From Planctomycetota bacterium (GTDB lineage: Bacteria; Planctomycetota; SZUA-567): a stretch of 27,049 nt of DNA. Positions within the stretch are counted from its first letter, which is position 1. Every line of letters starts with the position of its first letter. Location: assembly GCA_020860865.1 (NCBI GenBank), contig JAJBTL010000284.1, positions 1-27,049 on the forward strand, given 5' to 3'. The notes beneath the pieces were generated by a model. The model ran no database searches. It saw only the letters and a program-made list of their open reading frames with translations, and was not told the origin of the DNA. Below, piece after piece: positions 3,659-24,343 of the stretch. The translations under genes were made by a program, and so were the position numbers.

Positions 3659-5179
3659 TTACCGGGCCAGGGCGTCGGCGGCATAGCTCGCCGCGATGGC
3701 GTTGGTTGCCAGAACGACGATACCGGCGTCCCGGAGTTTTTTCACCTCTTCCTTCCGGCTTGGCCGGTCCTTGTCCGTGCCGCAGACCGAGGCGACGACG
3801 AGCTTATTCCGGCTCTCGCCGTTCGACTGCGTGGCGGCCCGCTCCAGCGCTTCGATTGCGAGATCGGCCTGGGCCGGATGCGATCCGTAGCCGATGACCA
3901 TGTCCATAAGGACGACGCCGACGTGGGGGTTACACAGGGCATCGACGAGCCGGTCCATCTTGAGATCCGGCGCCATCATCGGGTGCGGGCGGCCGACGGT
4001 GAATTCGTCCTCGCCGAGATCCCAGAAGACGTGGCCGTCGAAAGAATCCTTGCCTGTAATCTTTTCATAGCCGGGGACGGACAGGTTGGTCGCCTTCGGG
4101 CCGGAAAGTTTTTTCCCGCACAGCACCGCCGCTTCCTGGGCCAAGGTGCCGCCGCCGAAAATGCCGACTAGGTAACCGGAGCGCTTGCCCGCGTCGGGTG
4201 CCGACGCGTTGTCGTCGAGGGCGGCGTCCTTGTTGAAGTGCTTGGCAACAGCCAGGGACAGTTCGGTCAGGTCCAGGCCGGACACGATCCCGGCCGCTGT
4301 TTCAGGGGCGTAGTCGTCGGCGCCGACGTAGTGGACGAAAACCGGTTTCCCGAGGGTCTTGACTCGTTCGAGGATTTTCGCCCGGGTCGCCTTTCCCGGA
4401 GGTTTCCCGAGGATGACAATGGCCTTGACGTCGTCGTCCTTCGCCAGGCGTTCAAGAGCGACAAAACAGGACAGCCCGCCGATGTCGTCCTTGAGGTCGC
4501 GGCCGCCGATGCCGTAGGCCTGGTTGATGCCGACGCCGAGGCGGTCGAGGAGGCAGGTCACTTCCTGAAGGCCGGTGCCGGAAGCGCCGATGATGCCGAC
4601 CGGACCGGGCCGGACGACGTTGGCGAAGGCGAGCGGGACGCCGTCAATAATGGCGGTGCCGCAGTCCGGGCCCATGACGATGAGGCCTTTTTTGACTGCC
4701 ATCGATTTGAGGGCCAGTTCGTCGGCGAGGGAAATATTGTCGCTGTAGAGCATGACGTCCATGTTGCTGGCGAGGGCCTCGGCCGCTTCATAGCGGGCGT
4801 AGTCGCCGGCGACGGAGATGAGGGCGAGGTTGAACTTGCCGTTTTTCCGCGCCGCCTGGCGGACGGTGTGGAGGTTTTCGTCTCGTTCGTCCGCCGCGTC
4901 GCCGCTGGGCGATTCGTCCAGCATGCGGTTGACCACCGCTTCGGCGGCGGCAATCTGGGCGTCGTCGCCCTCGATGGCGATGGCGAGGTCGTTGGCTTTC
5001 GCGGAGGCGATGTCCGGCGTCATCAGGCCGGAGTCGGTGAACAGTTCCTTGTTCCTGTCTGTCGCCATCATGGCGGAGACGGTGGCGGCGCCACTCTCCC
5101 TGGCGGCTTGGGCGGACAATTTCATCAGGAAAATGGAATCGCGGTAGGTGTTGTTTCGGATCACGGCTCTATGGCTCAT
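3659..5179 (-). CDS. fdrA: FdrA/YahF family protein (succinyl-CoA synthetase alpha-like), 506 aa
   Basis: N-terminal YRDSIFLM, VMGPDCGTAII, GIIGASGTGLQE, GIGGRDL, GGTLAQEA, DLGEDEFTVGRPHPM, MDMVIGYGSH. RBS GAGGAG. Confidence 0.92.
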   Translation of the reverse strand: MSHRAVIRNNTYRDSIFLMKLSAQAARESGAATVSAMMATDRNKELFTDSGLMTPDIASAKANDLAIAIEGDDAQIAAAEAVVNRMLDESPSGDAADERDENLHTVRQAARKNGKFNLALISVAGDYARYEAAEALASNMDVMLYSDNISLADELALKSMAVKKGLIVMGPDCGTAIIDGVPLAFANVVRPGPVGIIGASGTGLQEVTCLLDRLGVGINQAYGIGGRDLKDDIGGLSCFVALERLAKDDDVKAIVILGKPPGKATRAKILERVKTLGKPVFVHYVGADDYAPETAAGIVSGLDLTELSLAVAKHFNKDAALDDNASAPDAGKRSGYLVGIFGGGTLAQEAAVLCGKKLSGPKATNLSVPGYEKITGKDSFDGHVFWDLGEDEFTVGRPHPMMAPDLKMDRLVDALCNPHVGVVLMDMVIGYGSHPAQADLAIEALERAATQSNGESRNKLVVASVCGTDKDRPSRKEEVKKLRDAGIVVLATNAIAASYAADALAR

Positions 5180-5243
5180 CTCTGCTCCTCTCGGAAAAGA
5201 CCTCGACGACGCACGTGTGTGGAACCAGGAGCGTCTGTGTATA

Positions 5244-5261
5244 TATTGCGCTCATGCAATA
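5244..5261. promoter_or_regulatory. palindromic operator candidate 1 (TATTGC-N6-GCAATA)
   Basis: Perfect 6+6 dyad lying just downstream of the predicted fdrA promoter. Shares ATATATTGC with the site at 5424. Confidence 0.55.
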
Positions 5262-5271
5262 CGGCGATATC

Positions 5272-5299
5272 TTTATAATAAATGCAATCACCGTGCCAA
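5272..5299 (-). promoter_or_regulatory. sigma70-type promoter candidate for the fdrA operon
   Basis: Minus strand TTGGCA (5299-5294), 16 bp, TATAAA (5277-5272). A second minus-strand TATAAT at 5344-5339 has a poor -35. Confidence 0.5.
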
Positions 5300-5423
5300 A
5301 TGCTATCGCAACGATGATATACCTCATGTTTATGCAGTATTATACCTAAAACCCAAATATACGGCAGTTAAACGCGAGATGGCACTGCCGCGACGTATTT
5401 CGATTCTGCCGTCACCAGAACGG

Positions 5424-5447
5424 ATATATTGCATTGGTGCCATATAT
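5424..5447. promoter_or_regulatory. palindromic operator candidate 2 (ATATATTGC-N6-GCCATATAT)
   Basis: Near-perfect 24-bp dyad with the same TATTGC-N6-GC(A/C)ATA geometry as 5244-5261. Confidence 0.55.
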
Positions 5448-5501
5448 AGTCTGTATGCCATAGTCCTGCATCCGTCGGGGGAAAACTTTTACCAAACCAC
5501 C

Positions 5502-5530
5502 TTGACTAAGATGGTTTAGCGGGGTACTAG
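5502..5530 (+). promoter_or_regulatory. promoter candidate for the rightward transcript
   Basis: TTGACT (5502-5507), 17 bp, TACTAG (5525-5530). The -10 is imperfect and is overlapped by the palindrome GTACTAGTAC (5524-5533). Confidence 0.4.
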
Positions 5531-5535
5531 TACAG

Positions 5536-5741
5536 TAGAGGGAGGTTAACAGATAACCGCTCACTGCGTCCGGCGTCATCCTTTCTCCGGCGGTAGTGGT
5601 AATCCTTGACCTCACTGCCAGGTACAGCAAGTTTGCGGTATGGGTTTCTCCGTAGGGGGCGAAGCTCAGAAATGTGGTATCGTACCTGGTGGTGGGTCAG
5701 GGATTACCCCTGTCGCCGCTGTCGCCTCCCCATCCCCTCTA
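5536..5741 (+). ncRNA. candidate structured RNA (leader/sRNA) or MITE, family unknown
   Basis: Stem 5588-5625/5682-5718 has 36 pairs, 5 of them G-U, with one bulge and one U-C mismatch. The ends pair as TAGAGGG (5536-5542)/CCCTCTA (5735-5741). Confidence 0.55.
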
Positions 5742-5832
5742 TACATATATATTCACCCCTTCGGGTTTACCCTTGGGAGATGGTCGGCTCCCGGGGCGTC
5801 TTTGGCGAATTAACGACTTCGAAAGGAAATCC

Positions 5833-7027
5833 ATGAAAATCACCAGTATCGACCTGATGGCCCTGGCGCCGGATCGCGGCAATGGCTCACGGCCGATCAT
5901 CTGCCGCATCAACACCGCCGGCGGCCTGTCCGGGTATGGTGAAGCCGGCATCGCCATCGGCACCGGCGCCCCGGCCTGTTTCGCCCTCCTGAAGGATTTC
6001 GCCCCGATGATCATCGGGATGGACGCCAACGCCAACGAGGTCATCTGGAAAAAAATCTTCAAAGCCTCGTTCTGGGGCGTCGGTAATGGCGGCGTCATTA
6101 TGTCCGCCCTGAGCGCCATCGACTGCGCCATCTGGGACTTGAAAGCCAAGGCCGCCAACCTTCCCCTCTACCAGCTCCTCGGCGGCAAGCAACGGGATAA
6201 ACTCTGGTGCTACGCGAGCCAGCTCCAGTTCGGCTGGGACACGGACAGCTTCAATCCGGCCCAGGCCGCCTCCGGCGATCCGTCCTTCTACGCCGACGCC
6301 GCCCGGAAGGCCCTTGCTCAAGGCTACACGGCGGTGAAGGCCAACTTCATCCGCTACGACGCCCAGGGGAAAATCCTCCCGCCCCAGGCGACCACCGGCC
6401 GCCTGTCCCGGGATCTGATGAAACTGGCTGAGGCCCGCATCGCCGCTGTCCGGGACGCTGTCGGCCCGGATGTGGAGGTCATTGCCGAAAACCACGCCAT
6501 GACCGACGCCGCCACCGCCATCCAGTTCGCCCGCATGGCCGAGCAGTTCGACATCATGTTCCTCGAGGAACCGACCATCCCGTTGAACCCGCCCGTTATG
6601 AAAAAAAATCGCCAACGGAGCTTCCATCCCCCTCGCCACCGGCGAACGGACCTACACCCGGTGGGGATTCCTGCCGTTCCAGCAAAGCGGCTGCCTCACC
6701 GTTATCCAGCCGGATATCGGCAATTGCGGCGGCATCACCGAAGGCAAGAAGATCTGCGACATGGCCCACATCTACGATGTCGGCGTCCAGACCCATGTCT
6801 GCTCCAGCCCGGTCAACCTCGCCGTGTCCATCCACCTCGAGGCCGCCATCCCCAACTTCACCATCCACGAACACCACATCGGCAGTACCCTGCCGTCCTG
6901 CGTGGAAATGGGGAAATACGATTACCAGCCGAAAAACGGCTATATGGAAATCCCGGAACTCCCGGGCATCGGCCAGGAGGTGTCGGAAATGGCCCTGAAA
7001 ACCGCCCACATCGAAACGATCAAGTAA
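5833..7027 (+). CDS. mandelate racemase/muconate lactonizing (enolase) superfamily enzyme, probable acid dehydratase; +1 frameshift at the A8 run 6601-6608 (~397 aa repaired)
   Basis: SAIDCAIWDLKAK, LLGG, YASQLQFGW, VKAN, AENH, FLEEP. After removing one A it continues KKIANGASIPLATGERTYTRWGF...QPDIGNCGGITEGKKI...THVCSSP...HEHH to TAA 7027. RBS AAAGGA. Confidence 0.88.
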
Positions 7028-7103
7028 TGACGGGCGGTGGTGTGTTGTGTGGTTCCGTTATTAATCCTAATCCGCTTTAAGATTTCCCGGGAGGACGTTC
7101 TCC

Positions 7104-8438
7104 GTGTCAGCCACTCCTGAAAAAACCAAGACCCTTGGCCTGTTCCCCCTGGTCGCCCTCGCCACCGGCCAGGTCATCGGCGCCGGCGTCGTCACCCTGA
7201 TTGGCGCCAGCATATCCCACACCGGCCGGTCGGTCTGGCTTGCCTATGTGGCGGCTGTCGCCCTTGGCTTCAGTATCATCATGTCGTACATGCTCCTTGC
7301 CAGCATGATCCGCGTCCGGGGCGGCAACTACACCTTTGTCGCCACCCTCCTCGGCGACCGCTGGGGCGGCCTCTACGGCATGGCCTTTACCATGAACGTC
7401 TTCGCCTGCGGCATGTTCGCCATGTCCCTCGGCCAATACGTCAACCTGATTATCCCGTCCCTCGGCGTCAAGACCGTCGCCATTGTCGGCGTCACCTTCT
7501 TCTATATTTTCAACATGCTTGGCGTCAACTTCATGTCGAAGATACAGAATATCCTGGCGACAACCCTCATACTCGGACTGATCCTGTTTGTCGTTGTCGG
7601 CATGGGCAAGCTCCAGCCCGGCGTCCTTGATTTTTCCGCCCCGGACTTTTTCCTGAAAGGGAGCGACGGCTTCCTCGCCGCCGTCGCCCTCCTCGTCTTC
7701 TCCTGCTACGGCCACGCCTTCGTCGTCGCCTTCAGTAAGGAAGCGAAAAACGCCAAGCGGGACATCCCCTTCGCCATGATGATAACGACCGGCATCATCC
7801 TCGTCGTCTATACCCTCATTGCCCTCGTCGCGTCGAATGTGCTGCCGGTCCCGGAAGTCGTGGGAAAACCGCTCACCGTCGTCGCCCGGGAAATCATGTC
7901 GGAACCGCTGTACTACGCGTTCGTCTTCGGCGGACCGGTCATGGCCCTCGCCACCACCCTGAACTCGTCCCTCAGCGTCTTCGCCCGGCCCTTCCACCAG
8001 ATGACCAATGACGGTTGGTTCCCGGCCTGGCTCGGCCGCACCAACCGTTACGGCGCGCCGTTTTATATCCTGACCCTGATGTACCTGATTGCCATCATCC
8101 CGATCGCCCTCGACCTCTCCATCAGCGTCATCACCTCGAACACCGTCCTCATCGGCCGCATCTCGGACCTTGTCGCCATTACCGCCATCATCACCCTGCC
8201 GAAGCGCCTGCCGGATGCCTGGGAAAACCGCTATTTCCGCCTGTCCAAACCGGTGTTTTACTTCCTTATGTATTTCAGTTTAGCAGCGACCATCTTCTGC
8301 ATGATTATCTCCATGGGCAACATGCCCCGCTCCAATGTCGCGGTGACGGTCTGCCTGGCCCTTGCCTTCCTTCTCTATGCGGTGTGGCGCCAGAACAGCG
8401 GCAAGGTCATAATGGAGAAGAGCTACGAATTGCAATAA
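7104..8438 (+). CDS. APC-family amino acid/polyamine permease, 444 aa
   Basis: About 12 hydrophobic segments, TM1 GQVIGAGV, SKEAKNAKRDIPFA, FARPFHQMTNDGWFP. GGAGG upstream of the GTG start. Confidence 0.88.
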   Translation: MSATPEKTKTLGLFPLVALATGQVIGAGVVTLIGASISHTGRSVWLAYVAAVALGFSIIMSYMLLASMIRVRGGNYTFVATLLGDRWGGLYGMAFTMNVFACGMFAMSLGQYVNLIIPSLGVKTVAIVGVTFFYIFNMLGVNFMSKIQNILATTLILGLILFVVVGMGKLQPGVLDFSAPDFFLKGSDGFLAAVALLVFSCYGHAFVVAFSKEAKNAKRDIPFAMMITTGIILVVYTLIALVASNVLPVPEVVGKPLTVVAREIMSEPLYYAFVFGGPVMALATTLNSSLSVFARPFHQMTNDGWFPAWLGRTNRYGAPFYILTLMYLIAIIPIALDLSISVITSNTVLIGRISDLVAITAIITLPKRLPDAWENRYFRLSKPVFYFLMYFSLAATIFCMIISMGNMPRSNVAVTVCLALAFLLYAVWRQNSGKVIMEKSYELQ

Positions 8439-8538
8439 TCGCCGTGCTGAAATTTGCTGTTGTCTAGAGCGGGCATAATCGTTATAAAGGGTGATTGCGA
8501 TGCGAAACCAAGTCCTTCTGGGATCCAACGACAAATAC

Positions 8539-8566
8539 CGTCGCCGGCATTTCGGTGCCGGCGACG
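8539..8566. repeat. 12-bp GC-rich hairpin with TTCG loop
   Basis: CGTCGCCGGCAT-TTCG-GTGCCGGCGACG, ending 3 nt before the GGAG of the GntR gene. No U-tract. Confidence 0.7.
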
Positions 8567-8584
8567 ATTGGAGATACGGATAGT

Positions 8585-9301
8585 ATGGCATTAGTCAAAA
8601 TTGAAAAAAAAGCGGTCGGCGACCGCGTTTTCGACGCCATCCATGAAGAAATCAGGAGCGGGGTCTACCAACCGGGCGAACGTCTGCCGTCCGAACGGGT
8701 GTTGTCCGAGCAGTTGGGCGTCAGCAAGTCCTCCGTCAAGGTGGCGATGCAGCGGCTGGTGGCTCTTGGCCTCGTCGAGATGCGCCGGGGCGAAGGCAAT
8801 TTCGTCAAGGAACATTCCGGGAACCCGTATCTCGACCAGGTCAGGCAGTTCCTCGTCGAAGCGCAGGGCGTGTCGAAAATAACCGAATACCGTTTTTATA
8901 TAGAAATGGCTACGGCCAGGCTGGCGATGAAGCGGGCGACGCCGGACAACTACGCCGCCATGGAAAAACTCCTCGTCCAGATGGAGGACGCCGCCCGGGA
9001 AGACGACCTGGTCCGCCACGGCCGCCTCGATTTCGAATTTCACCGGGAAATATGCCGCGCCACCCAGAACGACATTTTCATTAAAACGTACGAACTCATC
9101 GGCCCCATGCTTCGCGGCCATGCCACCCTTCTCAACCAGGGCACCTTCGACAATCTGCGTTCGCAACAGCCCGGCGACGATCTCCACTGGCGGCTTTACC
9201 GCGCCATCCGCGATCACGACACCGACGCCTGCCGCCGCTGTTATGCGGAGATGTTTTCCGTCTTTGAACCGTTCCCTGAAGAGCACCTCCGGGACGATTG
9301 A
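8585..9301 (+). CDS. GntR/FadR-family regulator with FCD domain, 238 aa
   Basis: IRSGVYQPGERLPSERVLSEQLGVSK..VK.AMQRL, followed by an FCD domain (EYRFYIE..., LDFEFHREICRATQN). True start is ATG 8585, not 8495. Confidence 0.93.
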   Translation: MALVKIEKKAVGDRVFDAIHEEIRSGVYQPGERLPSERVLSEQLGVSKSSVKVAMQRLVALGLVEMRRGEGNFVKEHSGNPYLDQVRQFLVEAQGVSKITEYRFYIEMATARLAMKRATPDNYAAMEKLLVQMEDAAREDDLVRHGRLDFEFHREICRATQNDIFIKTYELIGPMLRGHATLLNQGTFDNLRSQQPGDDLHWRLYRAIRDHDTDACRRCYAEMFSVFEPFPEEHLRDD

Positions 9302-9461: not shown

Positions 9462-11620
9462 ATGACCACCCTCGAACAACGCATCGCCGCCAAACTGCCC
9501 GGCGACGACACCGGCATCGCCATCCGGAAATCCCTCTGCACCATCTGCGACCCCCTCACCCAATGCGGCCTCGACTGCTATGTCAAGGACGGCCGGGTCA
9601 TCAAGGTCGAAGGGAGCGACGAAAACCCGTTCAACCGTGGCGCCCTTTGTTCCAAAGGCGCCGCCACCCGTCAGTACCTCTACCACGAAAACCGGCTGAA
9701 AACCCCGCTCCGCCGGGTCGGACCGCGCGGCTCCGACCGGTTCGAACCGATGTCGTGGGACGATGCCCTGGGCGAAATCGCCGAAAAGCTCCTCGCCGCC
9801 AAGCGGGACTTCGGCCCCGAGTCCGTCGTTTTCTATGCCGGGTATACGAAGTATTTCCGCCCGTACCTCATCCGCCTCGCCCATGTCTTCGGCACGCCGA
9901 ACTACTGTTCCGAGTCGAGCACCTGCAACATGGCCACCGGCATGGCCCAGCGCCTCGTCTTCGGCACCCCCGGCGCTCCCGACCTCGCGAACACGGACTG
10001 CCTCCTCGTCTGGAGTTCGAACCCGTTCTACACCGGCCACGGCCGGGCCCAGATGATCCAGAAACGCCTCGACAGCGGAATGAAAATGATCGTCGTCGAT
10101 CCCCGCATCACCCCGACCACCGCCCGGGCCGACATCCACCTCCAGCTTCGGCCGGGGACGGACGGCGCCCTCGCCTTGGCGATGGCCAATGTCATCATTA
10201 GTGAAAACCTCTACGATCGCGACTTTGTCGACAACTACACCCACGGCTTCCAGGCCTACCGGGACTATGTCCAGGCCTTTACCCCGGAAGAAGGCGAGCG
10301 CCTCACCGGCGTTCCGGCCGGGAAAATCCGCGCCGCCGCCCGCCTCTTCGCCGGAGCGAAATCGGCCTGCGTCCAGCCGAGCGCCAGCCCGGTCGTCCAC
10401 CACACGAACGGCGTCCAGAATTCCCGCGCCATGTTCATGCTTGTCGCCCTGACCGGGAACTACGACGTCCCCGGCGGCAACCGGGCCGAACCGCCCAGTT
10501 ACCTTTATGTCGGCGCCGGCTTCCAGACCCGGGAGCACCAGTTCGAAAACCCGGTCCCCATCACCAGCCTGCCGCCCCGCATCGGGTCGGAACGGTTCCC
10601 GGTCTGGATGGAGACGGCGTCCCCCGAGGCCAGGCCATGGCCCTCCCGGACCAGCTCCGGACCGGACAACCCTATCCTCTGAAGGCCCTCGTCGGCTTTG
10701 GCATGAACTACCGGATGTGGCCGGATTCGGAAGGGTTCAAGGAAAGCCTGGACAACCTCGACCTTGTCGTCAACACCGACATCTTCATGACAGACACCTG
10801 CCGCCACGCCGACATCGTCCTCCCGGCCTGCACGTCCCTCGAACGGATGGAGCTCCGCGCCTACGGCCCCCGTTACGTCATGCTCAGTCAGCCGGTCATC
10901 CCGGCCCTGTACGAGTCGAAATCCGCCGTCGACATGATTTTCGAACTGGCGAAGCGGATTTGCCCGGAAGACGACCTGTTCGCCAAAGGGTACGAAGGCT
11001 GCATCGACTGGATACTCGAGCCAAGCGGCATCACCGTCTCTGAACTAAAAAAGCATCCGGGCGGCATGCCGGTCCCGCATCCGCTGCCGGTGAAGGACCG
11101 GAAGTACGAGGGCGGCGCCGCCACGCCGAGCGGGAAGATTGAATTCCAGTCCACCGTCCTCGAAAAGTACGGGGAAAAGCCCGGATTCGAATCGCTCCCG
11201 GTCTACACCCCGCCCCGGAACAGCCCGGACGGCAACCCGGATCTGGCCCGGGACTACCCGCTTGTCCTGAACGCCGGATCTCGGCTCCCCATGTTCATTC
11301 ACAGCCGGGCCAATCACCTGACCTGGACCCAGAACCTCAGGCCGAACCATCCGGCCGCCGACATCCACCCGGACGACGCCATCCGCCACGGCATCCGCCA
11401 GGACGACGCCATCCGCCTCGCGACGCCCCACGGCGCCATCCAGGTCAAGGCGAACCTCACCCGCATGGTGCTGCCGGGCGTTGTCCACATGTATCACGGT
11501 TCCAGCCTGGCCGACGCGAACAGCCTCTTCGACAAGGACTACCTGGACCCGCTGTCCGGCTTCCCCGGCTACAAGTCGGCCCTGTGCCGTATTGAAAAAA
11601 TCAAGGAGGACCAGGCATGA
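9462..11620 (+). CDS. molybdopterin (bis-MGD, DMSO reductase superfamily) oxidoreductase catalytic subunit, cytoplasmic; -1 frameshift at ~10630 (~719 aa repaired)
   Basis: N-terminal C-x2-C-x5-C-x27-C cluster (CTICDPLTQC...LCSKG), RLKTPLRR, ESSTC, VVDPRITPT, LRPGTDGALALA, TGNYDVPGG. The second frame carries DIFMTDTCRHADIVLPA and the C-terminal IHPDDA..., VVHMYHG. Adding one C gives E-A-Q-A-M-A-L-P across the junction. No twin-arginine signal. Confidence 0.9.
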
Positions 11621-22494: not shown

Positions 22495-22712
22495 CGGCGC
22501 TCCGGAGCCATACCGGCTCCAGGCCGCGAGCGTCGGCACTTCCCGCATCCGGGTCAGTTCCGCCGATACCCGGGAGACACGGTTTCGGTTTGGCCACCGG
22601 CCGCGTCCGCCCGACAACGGTTCCACTCCTTTTCGCGAAGGGAAGGGAACCGGCTAAAACCGTCAACCCGAACCCAGCGAGCACAGCCAAACGGTGGCGC
22701 CGGGGCCGGAAT

Positions 22713-22740
22713 GGGAAATGACTGCATCATTTCCCCTTTT
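22713..22740 (+). terminator. intrinsic terminator-like hairpin
   Basis: GGGAAATGA-CTGCA-TCATTTCCC (perfect 9-bp stem) followed by CTTTT. Confidence 0.5.
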
Positions 22741-22895
22741 GCGCCCCGCCGCCGTGTCGACGCCGACGGCAGCGCCTTCTGGGTTCGAGATGACGGTTTT
22801 TTTTACCCTGACGTTCGGCGCCGGGTGGATATTTCCGACTGACCCTGAAGACGGGGAAATCGGCCAAAAACTTCCACCAGTCCCGCCGTCCGTTC

Positions 22896-24176: not shown

Positions 24177-24343
24177 GCAACATAAGCCCTATTATACTCA
24201 CATGCTGTTAATCGTAGTCATGCCTTGGGGTTAACCAACCACACGATTGGTCACGCACCCCCCCTCCTCCGCTCTCGACTGATCTCGAACGGTCCTCCAG
24301 TCTCGGCCAACGCAACATGCTCTGATAATAGGGCTTATGATGC
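24177..24343. repeat. 19-bp inverted repeats flanking 129 bp; candidate invertible DNA switch
   Basis: Left GCAACATAAGCCCTATTAT (24177-24195). Right ATAATAGGGCTTATGATGC (24325-24343), whose reverse complement is GCATCATAAGCCCTATTAT. 18/19 identical, with a 15-bp perfect core. Confidence 0.8.

Follow-up and report, generated by a model that had tools for sequence, protein, structure and literature searches.

Long double-stranded helices of 27-36 bp are the kind of substrate that bacterial RNase III cuts. In the leaders of rnc and pnp of Escherichia coli, a long stem that is processed by this enzyme acts in cis on the stability or the translation of the mRNA. A comparable arrangement is formed in Neisseria by the Correia elements (CREE or NEMIS), hairpin-forming inverted repeats of about 100-155 nt that are located between promoter and gene and are transcribed into the mRNA, where RNase III can bind the stem and cut or protect it, with altered expression of the adjacent gene as a result (PMC2649163).

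The element described here comprises positions 5536-5741 of the plus strand of a 27,049-nt stretch of DNA from a Planctomycetota bacterium (hereafter the window). Like the rnc and pnp leaders it presents a long double-stranded stem in a 5' leader and its host encodes RNase III, but it has no sequence relation to them and the conservation of its stem and apex exceeds what such leaders need. The likeness to the Correia elements extends to size, position and the long perfect helix. Correia elements, however, are mobile, exist in many copies and have defined terminal repeats with a duplicated TA. The element lacks such termini, is single-copy, is fixed at an orthologous position that the three lineages share and is more strongly conserved than expected at the neutral rate. 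The analogy thus would concern a possible mode of action and not membership. As a structured, non-coding leader RNA the element invites comparison with the riboswitches, 6S RNAs, leaders and sRNAs of Rfam, but it matches none of these. In line with the initial annotation, which recognised no riboswitch, SRP, tmRNA, RNase P or 6S consensus, a cmscan search against Rfam yielded nothing inside 5536-5741 at E<=10; for the region 5200-6000 (Rfam 15, same threshold) there were three weak matches, all outside the element and far below the gathering scores.

That annotation had left the choice between a novel cis-regulatory leader and a MITE. The first half has held, considering the position behind a promoter, the presence at the same site in two diverged relatives, the structure-preserving substitutions on the plus strand and the lack of an Rfam match; the second half has not. 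We consider it somewhat better than an even bet (a probability of roughly 55%) that the element is a structured 5' leader RNA, restricted to a small clade, kept by selection and acting in cis, most plausibly as a processing or stability determinant of the RNase III type.

The operon and the architecture of its leader

The element precedes a three-gene operon on the plus strand (5833-9301), which on basis of Pfam matches encodes a dehydratase of the MR/MLE enolase superfamily (5833-7080, frameshifted in the window), an APC amino-acid permease (7104-8438) and a GntR/FCD regulator (8495-9301). The same three-gene cassette is found in L024, L126, L129, L130, L133 and L134, and the closest orthologous records are from Planctomycetaceae or Planctomycetota MAGs. 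Upstream, FdrA-like and AllG-like genes (Pfam) are transcribed divergently, and the spacer of 653 nt between the two directions is AT-richer than the genes on either side. The dehydratase start (ATG 5833) is preceded by the Shine-Dalgarno sequence AAGGA at 5823-5827 (feature 5823-5835), part of a GAAAGGA motif that is conserved before the ATG in the orthologs. The distance between the 3' end of the element and this start, given earlier as about 90 nt, was measured at 91 nt.

Several reading frames in these assemblies are interrupted. The dehydratase gene of the window carries one extra A in a run of eight A (6590-6602) as compared to L126, which shifts the frame of the last ~160 codons and limits the MR_MLE_C match to profile position 93 of 219. 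The molybdopterin oxidoreductase of the window is divided over two overlapping frames (9462-10682 and 10637-11620), where a single gene of 719 codons is present in L126 and L133, and the permease is split in L126. Such scattered frameshifts in the window and in L126 suggest assembly errors in these MAGs. The dehydratase frameshift is either an error of that kind or the mark of a recent pseudogene and, if real, the operon may be decaying in the lineage of the window.

The promoter candidate that had been noted just upstream of the element proved to be conserved in position across the orthologs. It consists of a -35 box TTGACT (5502-5507), a spacer of 17 nt and a -10 box TACTAG (5525-5530) on the plus strand. 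A simple consensus promoter scan made no call at 5502-5530; the arrangement TTGAC[T/C]-17 nt-T/A-rich hexamer is found at the same place before the small hairpin in 11 of the 12 orthologous leaders, and the hexamers are invariant in L126 and L133. Judged from this promoter, transcription would start at about 5536-5539 and run through the element, the 5' leader appears to be some 295 nt long, and the element appears to make up most of it.

Folded in isolation, the plus strand of 5536-5741 reaches -97.7 kcal/mol (RNAfold, z -5.3); shuffled versions average -71.6 kcal/mol and none of the 200 is as stable as the native strand. For the minus strand the values are -78 kcal/mol and z -3.0. The structure is dominated by the long stem formed by 5588-5625 and 5682-5718, the 36 pairs of which had been counted correctly: 31 are Watson-Crick and five are G-U (positions 5593, 5594, 5606, 5616 and 5617 in a pair-by-pair check), with no A-C, and the stem is interrupted by one 1x1 mismatch (5597/5709) and one bulge (5612) only. 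Its conserved inner part (5' arm 5598-5625, 3' arm 5682-5708) is a 27-bp consensus helix across three sequences, whereas the outer part is variable and on the 5' side (5572-5597) combines the outer stem (5588-5597) with a 9-nt internal loop of pyrimidines (5579-5587). On the 3' side (5709-5741) the outer stem (5709-5726) gives way to a tract rich in C and poor in G, with CCCTCTA at its end; in L126 and L133 the composition of this region is kept and its sequence is not. The apex had been proposed to fold through the pairings GGTAT/GTATC and TTTCT/AGAAA, for which we found no support; the conserved apex is a hairpin at 5641-5668, with a 10-bp stem that contains one 1x1 mismatch and a loop GUAGGG.

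Closure of the ends by TAGAGGG (5536-5542, the 5' strand of helix P1) and CCCTCTA (5735-5741) is part of the minimum free energy structure of the isolated element, but in the full leader an alternative register competes with it: in the fold of 5538-5870 the long stem is unaltered and the 5' purine tract is able to pair otherwise with the C-rich tract 3' of the stem. Between P1 and the long hairpin lies a small hairpin, hp1 (5544-5558, GGTTA acaga TAACC). Directly 3' of the structure an AU-rich box, CTCTATACATATATA (5737-5751), is identical at all 15 positions in the window, L126 and L133, amid flanks of ~50% identity. The box may serve as an operator, as a weak promoter element or as a site of the RNase E type, and the consensus scan made no call for a second promoter there.

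An intrinsic terminator or attenuator was considered and rejected, for the stem is followed by the C-rich tract and then by alternating A and U, with no U-tract; in addition, no terminator-like site was found on the plus strand in 5100-5900. Elsewhere in the window (22656-22800), 33-nt inverted repeats at a distance of 79 nt are followed by eight T, a combination that is single-copy in the genome and looks like an unusually long terminator-like hairpin. An anti-Shine-Dalgarno role was discarded as well: TCCTTTC (5579-5585) is complementary to GAAAGGA (5821-5827), but L126 and L133 have TCCCTCC, and the pairing is unused in the full-leader fold.

Conservation and substitutions in two related leaders

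A search with the dehydratase protein led to a 95%-identical protein on contig L126 (identical in L127 and L128), and L133 was found as a cluster mate of the L126 dehydratase. Both contigs share the synteny of the window, with a spacer of 663-673 nt, and carry the element at the same location. A covariance model built from the window sequence and its fold alone (R1) scores them at 87 and 83 bits (E ~1e-20). Since the three sequences include two that are close together, they represent effectively about two independent lineages. A search with the FdrA homolog gave, outside its 90% cluster, nearest proteins of at most 71% identity and so reached no further element-bearing lineages, and exact look-ups of the permease and FdrA proteins of the window gave no record. 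In L133 a run of 10 N, flanked by a duplicated CTGGTAATC, lies exactly in the left arm of the hairpin (L133:2749-2766), where the palindrome appears to have disturbed the assembly.

The core of the element, i.e. the inner stem (5598-5625/5682-5708) and the apical hairpin (5641-5668), is identical to the two homologs at 76 and 77 of its 83 positions (~92%), against 48-50% for the leader outside the core. For comparison, the DNA of the adjacent gene is 89% (L126) and 88% (L133) identical to the window, and 73.5% and 70.4%, respectively, at third codon positions. The corresponding binomial p-values of core versus background (3e-5 and 6e-7) are overstated because the blocks were chosen after the alignment had been seen, but the contrast is nonetheless large. 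Specified per part, the identity to L126 amounts to 24/28 for the 5' arm of the inner stem, 26/28 for the apical hairpin and 26/27 for the 3' arm, and to only ~50% for the outer part 5572-5597, the pairing of which is kept in the window and L133 and weakened in L126.

The conserved apical block starts exactly at an ATG (5640), which raises the question whether it represents the start of a gene for a small leader peptide (MGFSVGGE...), the more so since no stop interrupts the first 23 codons, which resemble each other across the three homologs. Past codon 23, however, frames and lengths diverge (57, 39 and 43 codons), the conserved blocks lack synonymous variation, and the variable block changes amino acids freely. 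Moreover, the ATG lies inside a stable helix and has no Shine-Dalgarno sequence before it. The small ORF was rejected on basis of this frame comparison, and we regard a peptide as highly improbable.

The substitutions within the conserved stems respect the fold. In the three-sequence alignment six changes keep the pairing and one, at 5621 and in L126 only, breaks it. The pair-keeping changes include U-G to C-G at 5616, C-G to U-G at 5625 and A5684 to G, which is the sole change in the 3' arm with respect to L126 and turns U-A into U-G; the variants AG, GA and AA at 5663/5664 each still pair with UU, and the bulge at 5611/5612 is shifted among the homologs with the pairing kept. A rough binomial estimate of this excess (6 of 7 events against a null of ~0.3-0.4) gives p ~0.01-0.04. 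Compensatory double changes are found at 5547/5555 (in hp1, U-A to C-G in both L126 and L133), 5560/5566, 5578/5720 and 5595/5711, with a further one, identified by eye, at 5593/5713 in L133. The complementarity of P1 is likewise kept in both relatives, where one C-to-U change results in a G-U pair.

The strand on which the changes are tolerated is informative. In the conserved stems all simple changes are transitions that create or remove a G-U pair on the plus strand, and over all helices about 12 positions change to G-U on that strand versus two to A-C. Three G-U pairs (5606/5700, 5617/5690 and 5643/5666) are invariant. The core is also more stable on the plus strand in all three homologs (-61.7, -65.1 and -66.8 kcal/mol, versus -43.4, -36.9 and -44.9 kcal/mol on the minus strand), an advantage of 18-28 kcal/mol. 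The argument that an excess of G-U over A-C favours selection on a plus-strand RNA was sound, weak as long as it relied on one sequence and stronger with the homologs. The G-U excess could in part arise from a C-to-T mutation bias on the non-template strand, and the correction of quasi-palindromes by template switching could mimic compensatory change, but the latter would not preserve G-T mismatches. Taken at face value, the pattern suggests that the plus-strand RNA fold appears to be kept by selection.

The same pattern bears on the idea that the element works as DNA, in the form of a palindromic operator, a cruciform or a small invertible segment near the promoter. The element does lie 40-220 bp from the promoter and the sequence of both of its arms is conserved. 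In addition, the window holds an unrelated inverted-repeat switch (24177-24343), and AT-rich boxes with a common CATATATA flank the promoter (5439-5462 and 5737-5751). Yet a DNA palindrome is symmetric and does not predict a bias towards G-T on the plus strand, whereas every tolerated transition is G-T on that strand and A-C on the other, and G-T mismatches that are conserved would make a cruciform or a symmetric operator weaker. A spacer of 56 bp is very short for recombinase-mediated inversion, and the arms are dissimilar to the repeats at 24177-24343. These last two features, together with the same orientation in all three homologs, led us to reject an inverton, and a DNA-level role in general is in our view quite improbable. 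As to the boxes themselves, the upstream one, GCCATATATAGTCTGTATGCCATA (5439-5462), lies 40-63 nt 5' of the -35 box and is kept in L126 and partly in L133, and it has CATATATA in common with the AU box at 5744-5751. From their sequence the two may be paired operators around the promoter for the GntR regulator of the operon.

Origin of the hairpin module

The leader can be compared with those of nine related dehydratase-permease-GntR operons (L024, L025, L130, L129, L132, L134, L059, L060 and L065), the enzymes of which are 75-87% identical to that of the window where scored. Eight of the nine have the TTGAC[T/C]-17 nt-T/A-rich hexamer promoter (L060 has no TTGAC), most have kept a GAAAGGA-type ribosome-binding site, and the distance from the -35 box to the ATG ranges from 93 to 251 nt. 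The long hairpin is absent from all nine leaders, which are short or different. With the alignment anchored at the -35 box, positions 5536-5567 of the window are clearly homologous to the hairpin-less leaders: L024, L025 and L130 contain, a few nucleotides past the transcript start, a counterpart of hp1 (GGTGAAC..GTTCACC), and the leaders of L129 and L134 align across the hp1 stretch. Hence hp1 belongs to the ancestral leader and lies outside the lineage-specific part, which extends from after ~5570 nearly to the ribosome-binding site. Across the orthologous operons the fourth pair of hp1 covaries (U-A, C-G, G-C), and the hairpin is probably a 5' stabiliser of the ancestral leader, as far as its sequence can tell. 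The operon leader turns over quickly, as follows from L134, the enzyme of which falls in the 90% cluster of that of L126 (81% nucleotide identity to the window): despite this close kinship L134 has a different leader of 251 nt (L134:2750-3000) without significant structure (z +1.35), and the genes upstream of it differ as well. The best reading of these comparisons is a single gain of the hairpin module, in the common ancestor of three Planctomycetaceae lineages that are close relatives.

How it was gained touches on the second proposal of the initial annotation, a MITE with the ends TA-GAGGG...CCCTC-TA. This does not agree with the data on two counts. Firstly, the left end is shared with orthologs that lack the hairpin, so that TA-GAGGG represents the ancestral transcript start and not a transposon end; around the hairpin proper (5572-5726) no TA flanks are present. 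Secondly, a BLAST search within the genome, which had been put forward as the way to tell a MITE from a regulatory RNA, returned one copy only, as did the covariance model R1, in an assembly of 3.56 Mb that is 76% complete, from which a few copies could be missed. No other copies were found in 60 relatives (BLAST and R1), in 400 genomes sampled separately from the phylum (BLAST; only chance matches of 20-38 nt) or in 31 genomes of the family (BLAST), and a 28-nt stem pattern had no match in viral contigs. Considering that R1 finds L126 and L133 at E ~1e-20, copies of comparable divergence in the genomes searched with it would have been detected.

Genuine MITEs are abundant in the same genome (G000). 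An inverted-repeat scan revealed at least five families of TA-flanked hairpin MITEs of 150-170 nt, with examples outside the window at C130:225-391, C329:1211-1363, C404:16692-16842, C396:1115-1277 and C388:9131-9292. The families count 3-32 full-length copies each, with up to 77 matching places, and have ends such as TAGAAGCTGTT/TAGAACCTGTT. The first genome-wide scan used exact seeds of 9-10 nt and missed the element because G-U pairs break such seeds; it offers no basis for calling the element unusual among hairpins. Resident MITEs such as C130:225-391 and C329:1211-1363 are like the element in their length of 150-170 nt and in having long arms around an apex of 55-120 nt with its own hairpin. 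They are unlike it in being present in 3-32 full copies with TA-flanked terminal repeats (e.g. TAGAAGCTGTT), whereas the element is a single copy that neither BLAST nor the covariance model relates to them. Since MITEs of equal size assemble well in this genome, the single copy is meaningful.

A functionless, decaying relic of a MITE or of another palindromic mobile insertion in the leader is a more modest version of the proposal. It would agree with the shape of the resident TA-flanked families, one of which likewise has 5 G-U and 0 A-C on one strand, and with the orthologous operons that lack the hairpin, which must therefore have been gained. Those empty sites, present in the nine orthologous leaders, nevertheless fit any one-time gain and not transposition alone. 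The relic is difficult to reconcile with a single copy where the assembly recovers genuine MITE families at 27-32 full copies, with the lack of any copy in the 60 relatives or the 400 phylum genomes, with the dissimilarity to the resident MITE ends and with the ancestral nature of the TA-GAGGG terminus. Moreover, neutral decay predicts neither a core of 92% identity between flanks of ~50% nor substitutions that preserve pairing. We consider a mere relic unlikely, and a selected leader RNA the better account; in a genome so rich in MITEs its hairpin is perhaps descended from a palindromic insertion.

Possible mode of action and meaning

As a cis-acting leader RNA the element would function as follows. 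The transcript would start at about 5536-5539, from the promoter that is conserved in the orthologous operons, and its first 30 nt, with the purine-rich 5' end and hp1, would be ancestral. The module of ~5572-5726, composed of the conserved inner stem of 27 bp, the variable outer stem and the conserved apical hairpin, would be followed by the AU-rich box (5737-5751) and ~70 nt of new leader. Acting in cis on the operon mRNA, the helix of 27-36 bp would be a substrate for cleavage by RNase III, and the closing helix would hide the 5' end of the transcript. Together the two would set how the transcript is processed, how stable it is or how it is translated, in addition to control of transcription by the operon's own GntR repressor. 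A homolog of RNase III is encoded in the genome itself (PF14622 at C285:26361-26732, 113 bits), and where substrates of this enzyme offer an uninterrupted double strand of at least about two helical turns, the conserved helix has 27 bp and the stem in the window 36 pairs. Cleavage by RNase III, protection of the 5' end and any regulatory consequence are inferred.

The conservation of the inner stem, with 24 invariant nt on its 3' arm, exceeds what RNase III needs, which hints at a sequence-specific partner; judged from the alignment, such a partner is possible. A new riboregulator of this kind could be a ligand- or protein-binding leader or a stable RNA that is processed from the 5' UTR and acts in trans. 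Consistent with it are the invariant 24-nt blocks of the inner stem, the invariant apical hairpin with its GUAGGG loop, the invariant G-U pairs, the conserved AU box right after the structure and the absence of a matching Rfam family, as well as the junction-like way in which the closing helix encloses hp1 and the long stem. In the three sequences compared, however, the element consists mainly of a single long helix and a conserved apical hairpin. No multi-helix junction or internal loop is conserved among them, although with so few sequences a ligand pocket is conceivable, and they show no conserved terminator, U-tract or alternative that sequesters the Shine-Dalgarno sequence, the anti-SD-like TCCTTTC being specific for the window. 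The operon already has its own GntR regulator, only three lineages carry the element, and no complementary target stood out in the genome, where the matches were short and of the chance type. A dedicated partner is thus a doubtful reading next to that of a processing or stability determinant.

The practical weight of the element is limited, considering that it occurs in three uncultured lineages only and that leader hairpins that affect the fate of an mRNA are an already known device. Even so, it adds a candidate regulatory RNA for the Planctomycetota, a phylum for which few have been described. The relatives have the same promoter, hp1 and ribosome-binding site with or without the module of 150 nt, so that its gain and the later selection can be compared directly and, if the preferred reading is right, the locus would be a clean natural example of the origin of a structured leader RNA. 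It is a tentative thought, to which we attach a low probability, that the element is an undescribed, partner-specific riboregulator (a sensor of a protein or metabolite, or an RNase III-gated switch) that arose by domestication of a palindromic insertion and now governs a catabolic operon in gut planctomycetes. If that were true, the locus would record a rare and datable birth of a cis-regulatory RNA between close relatives.
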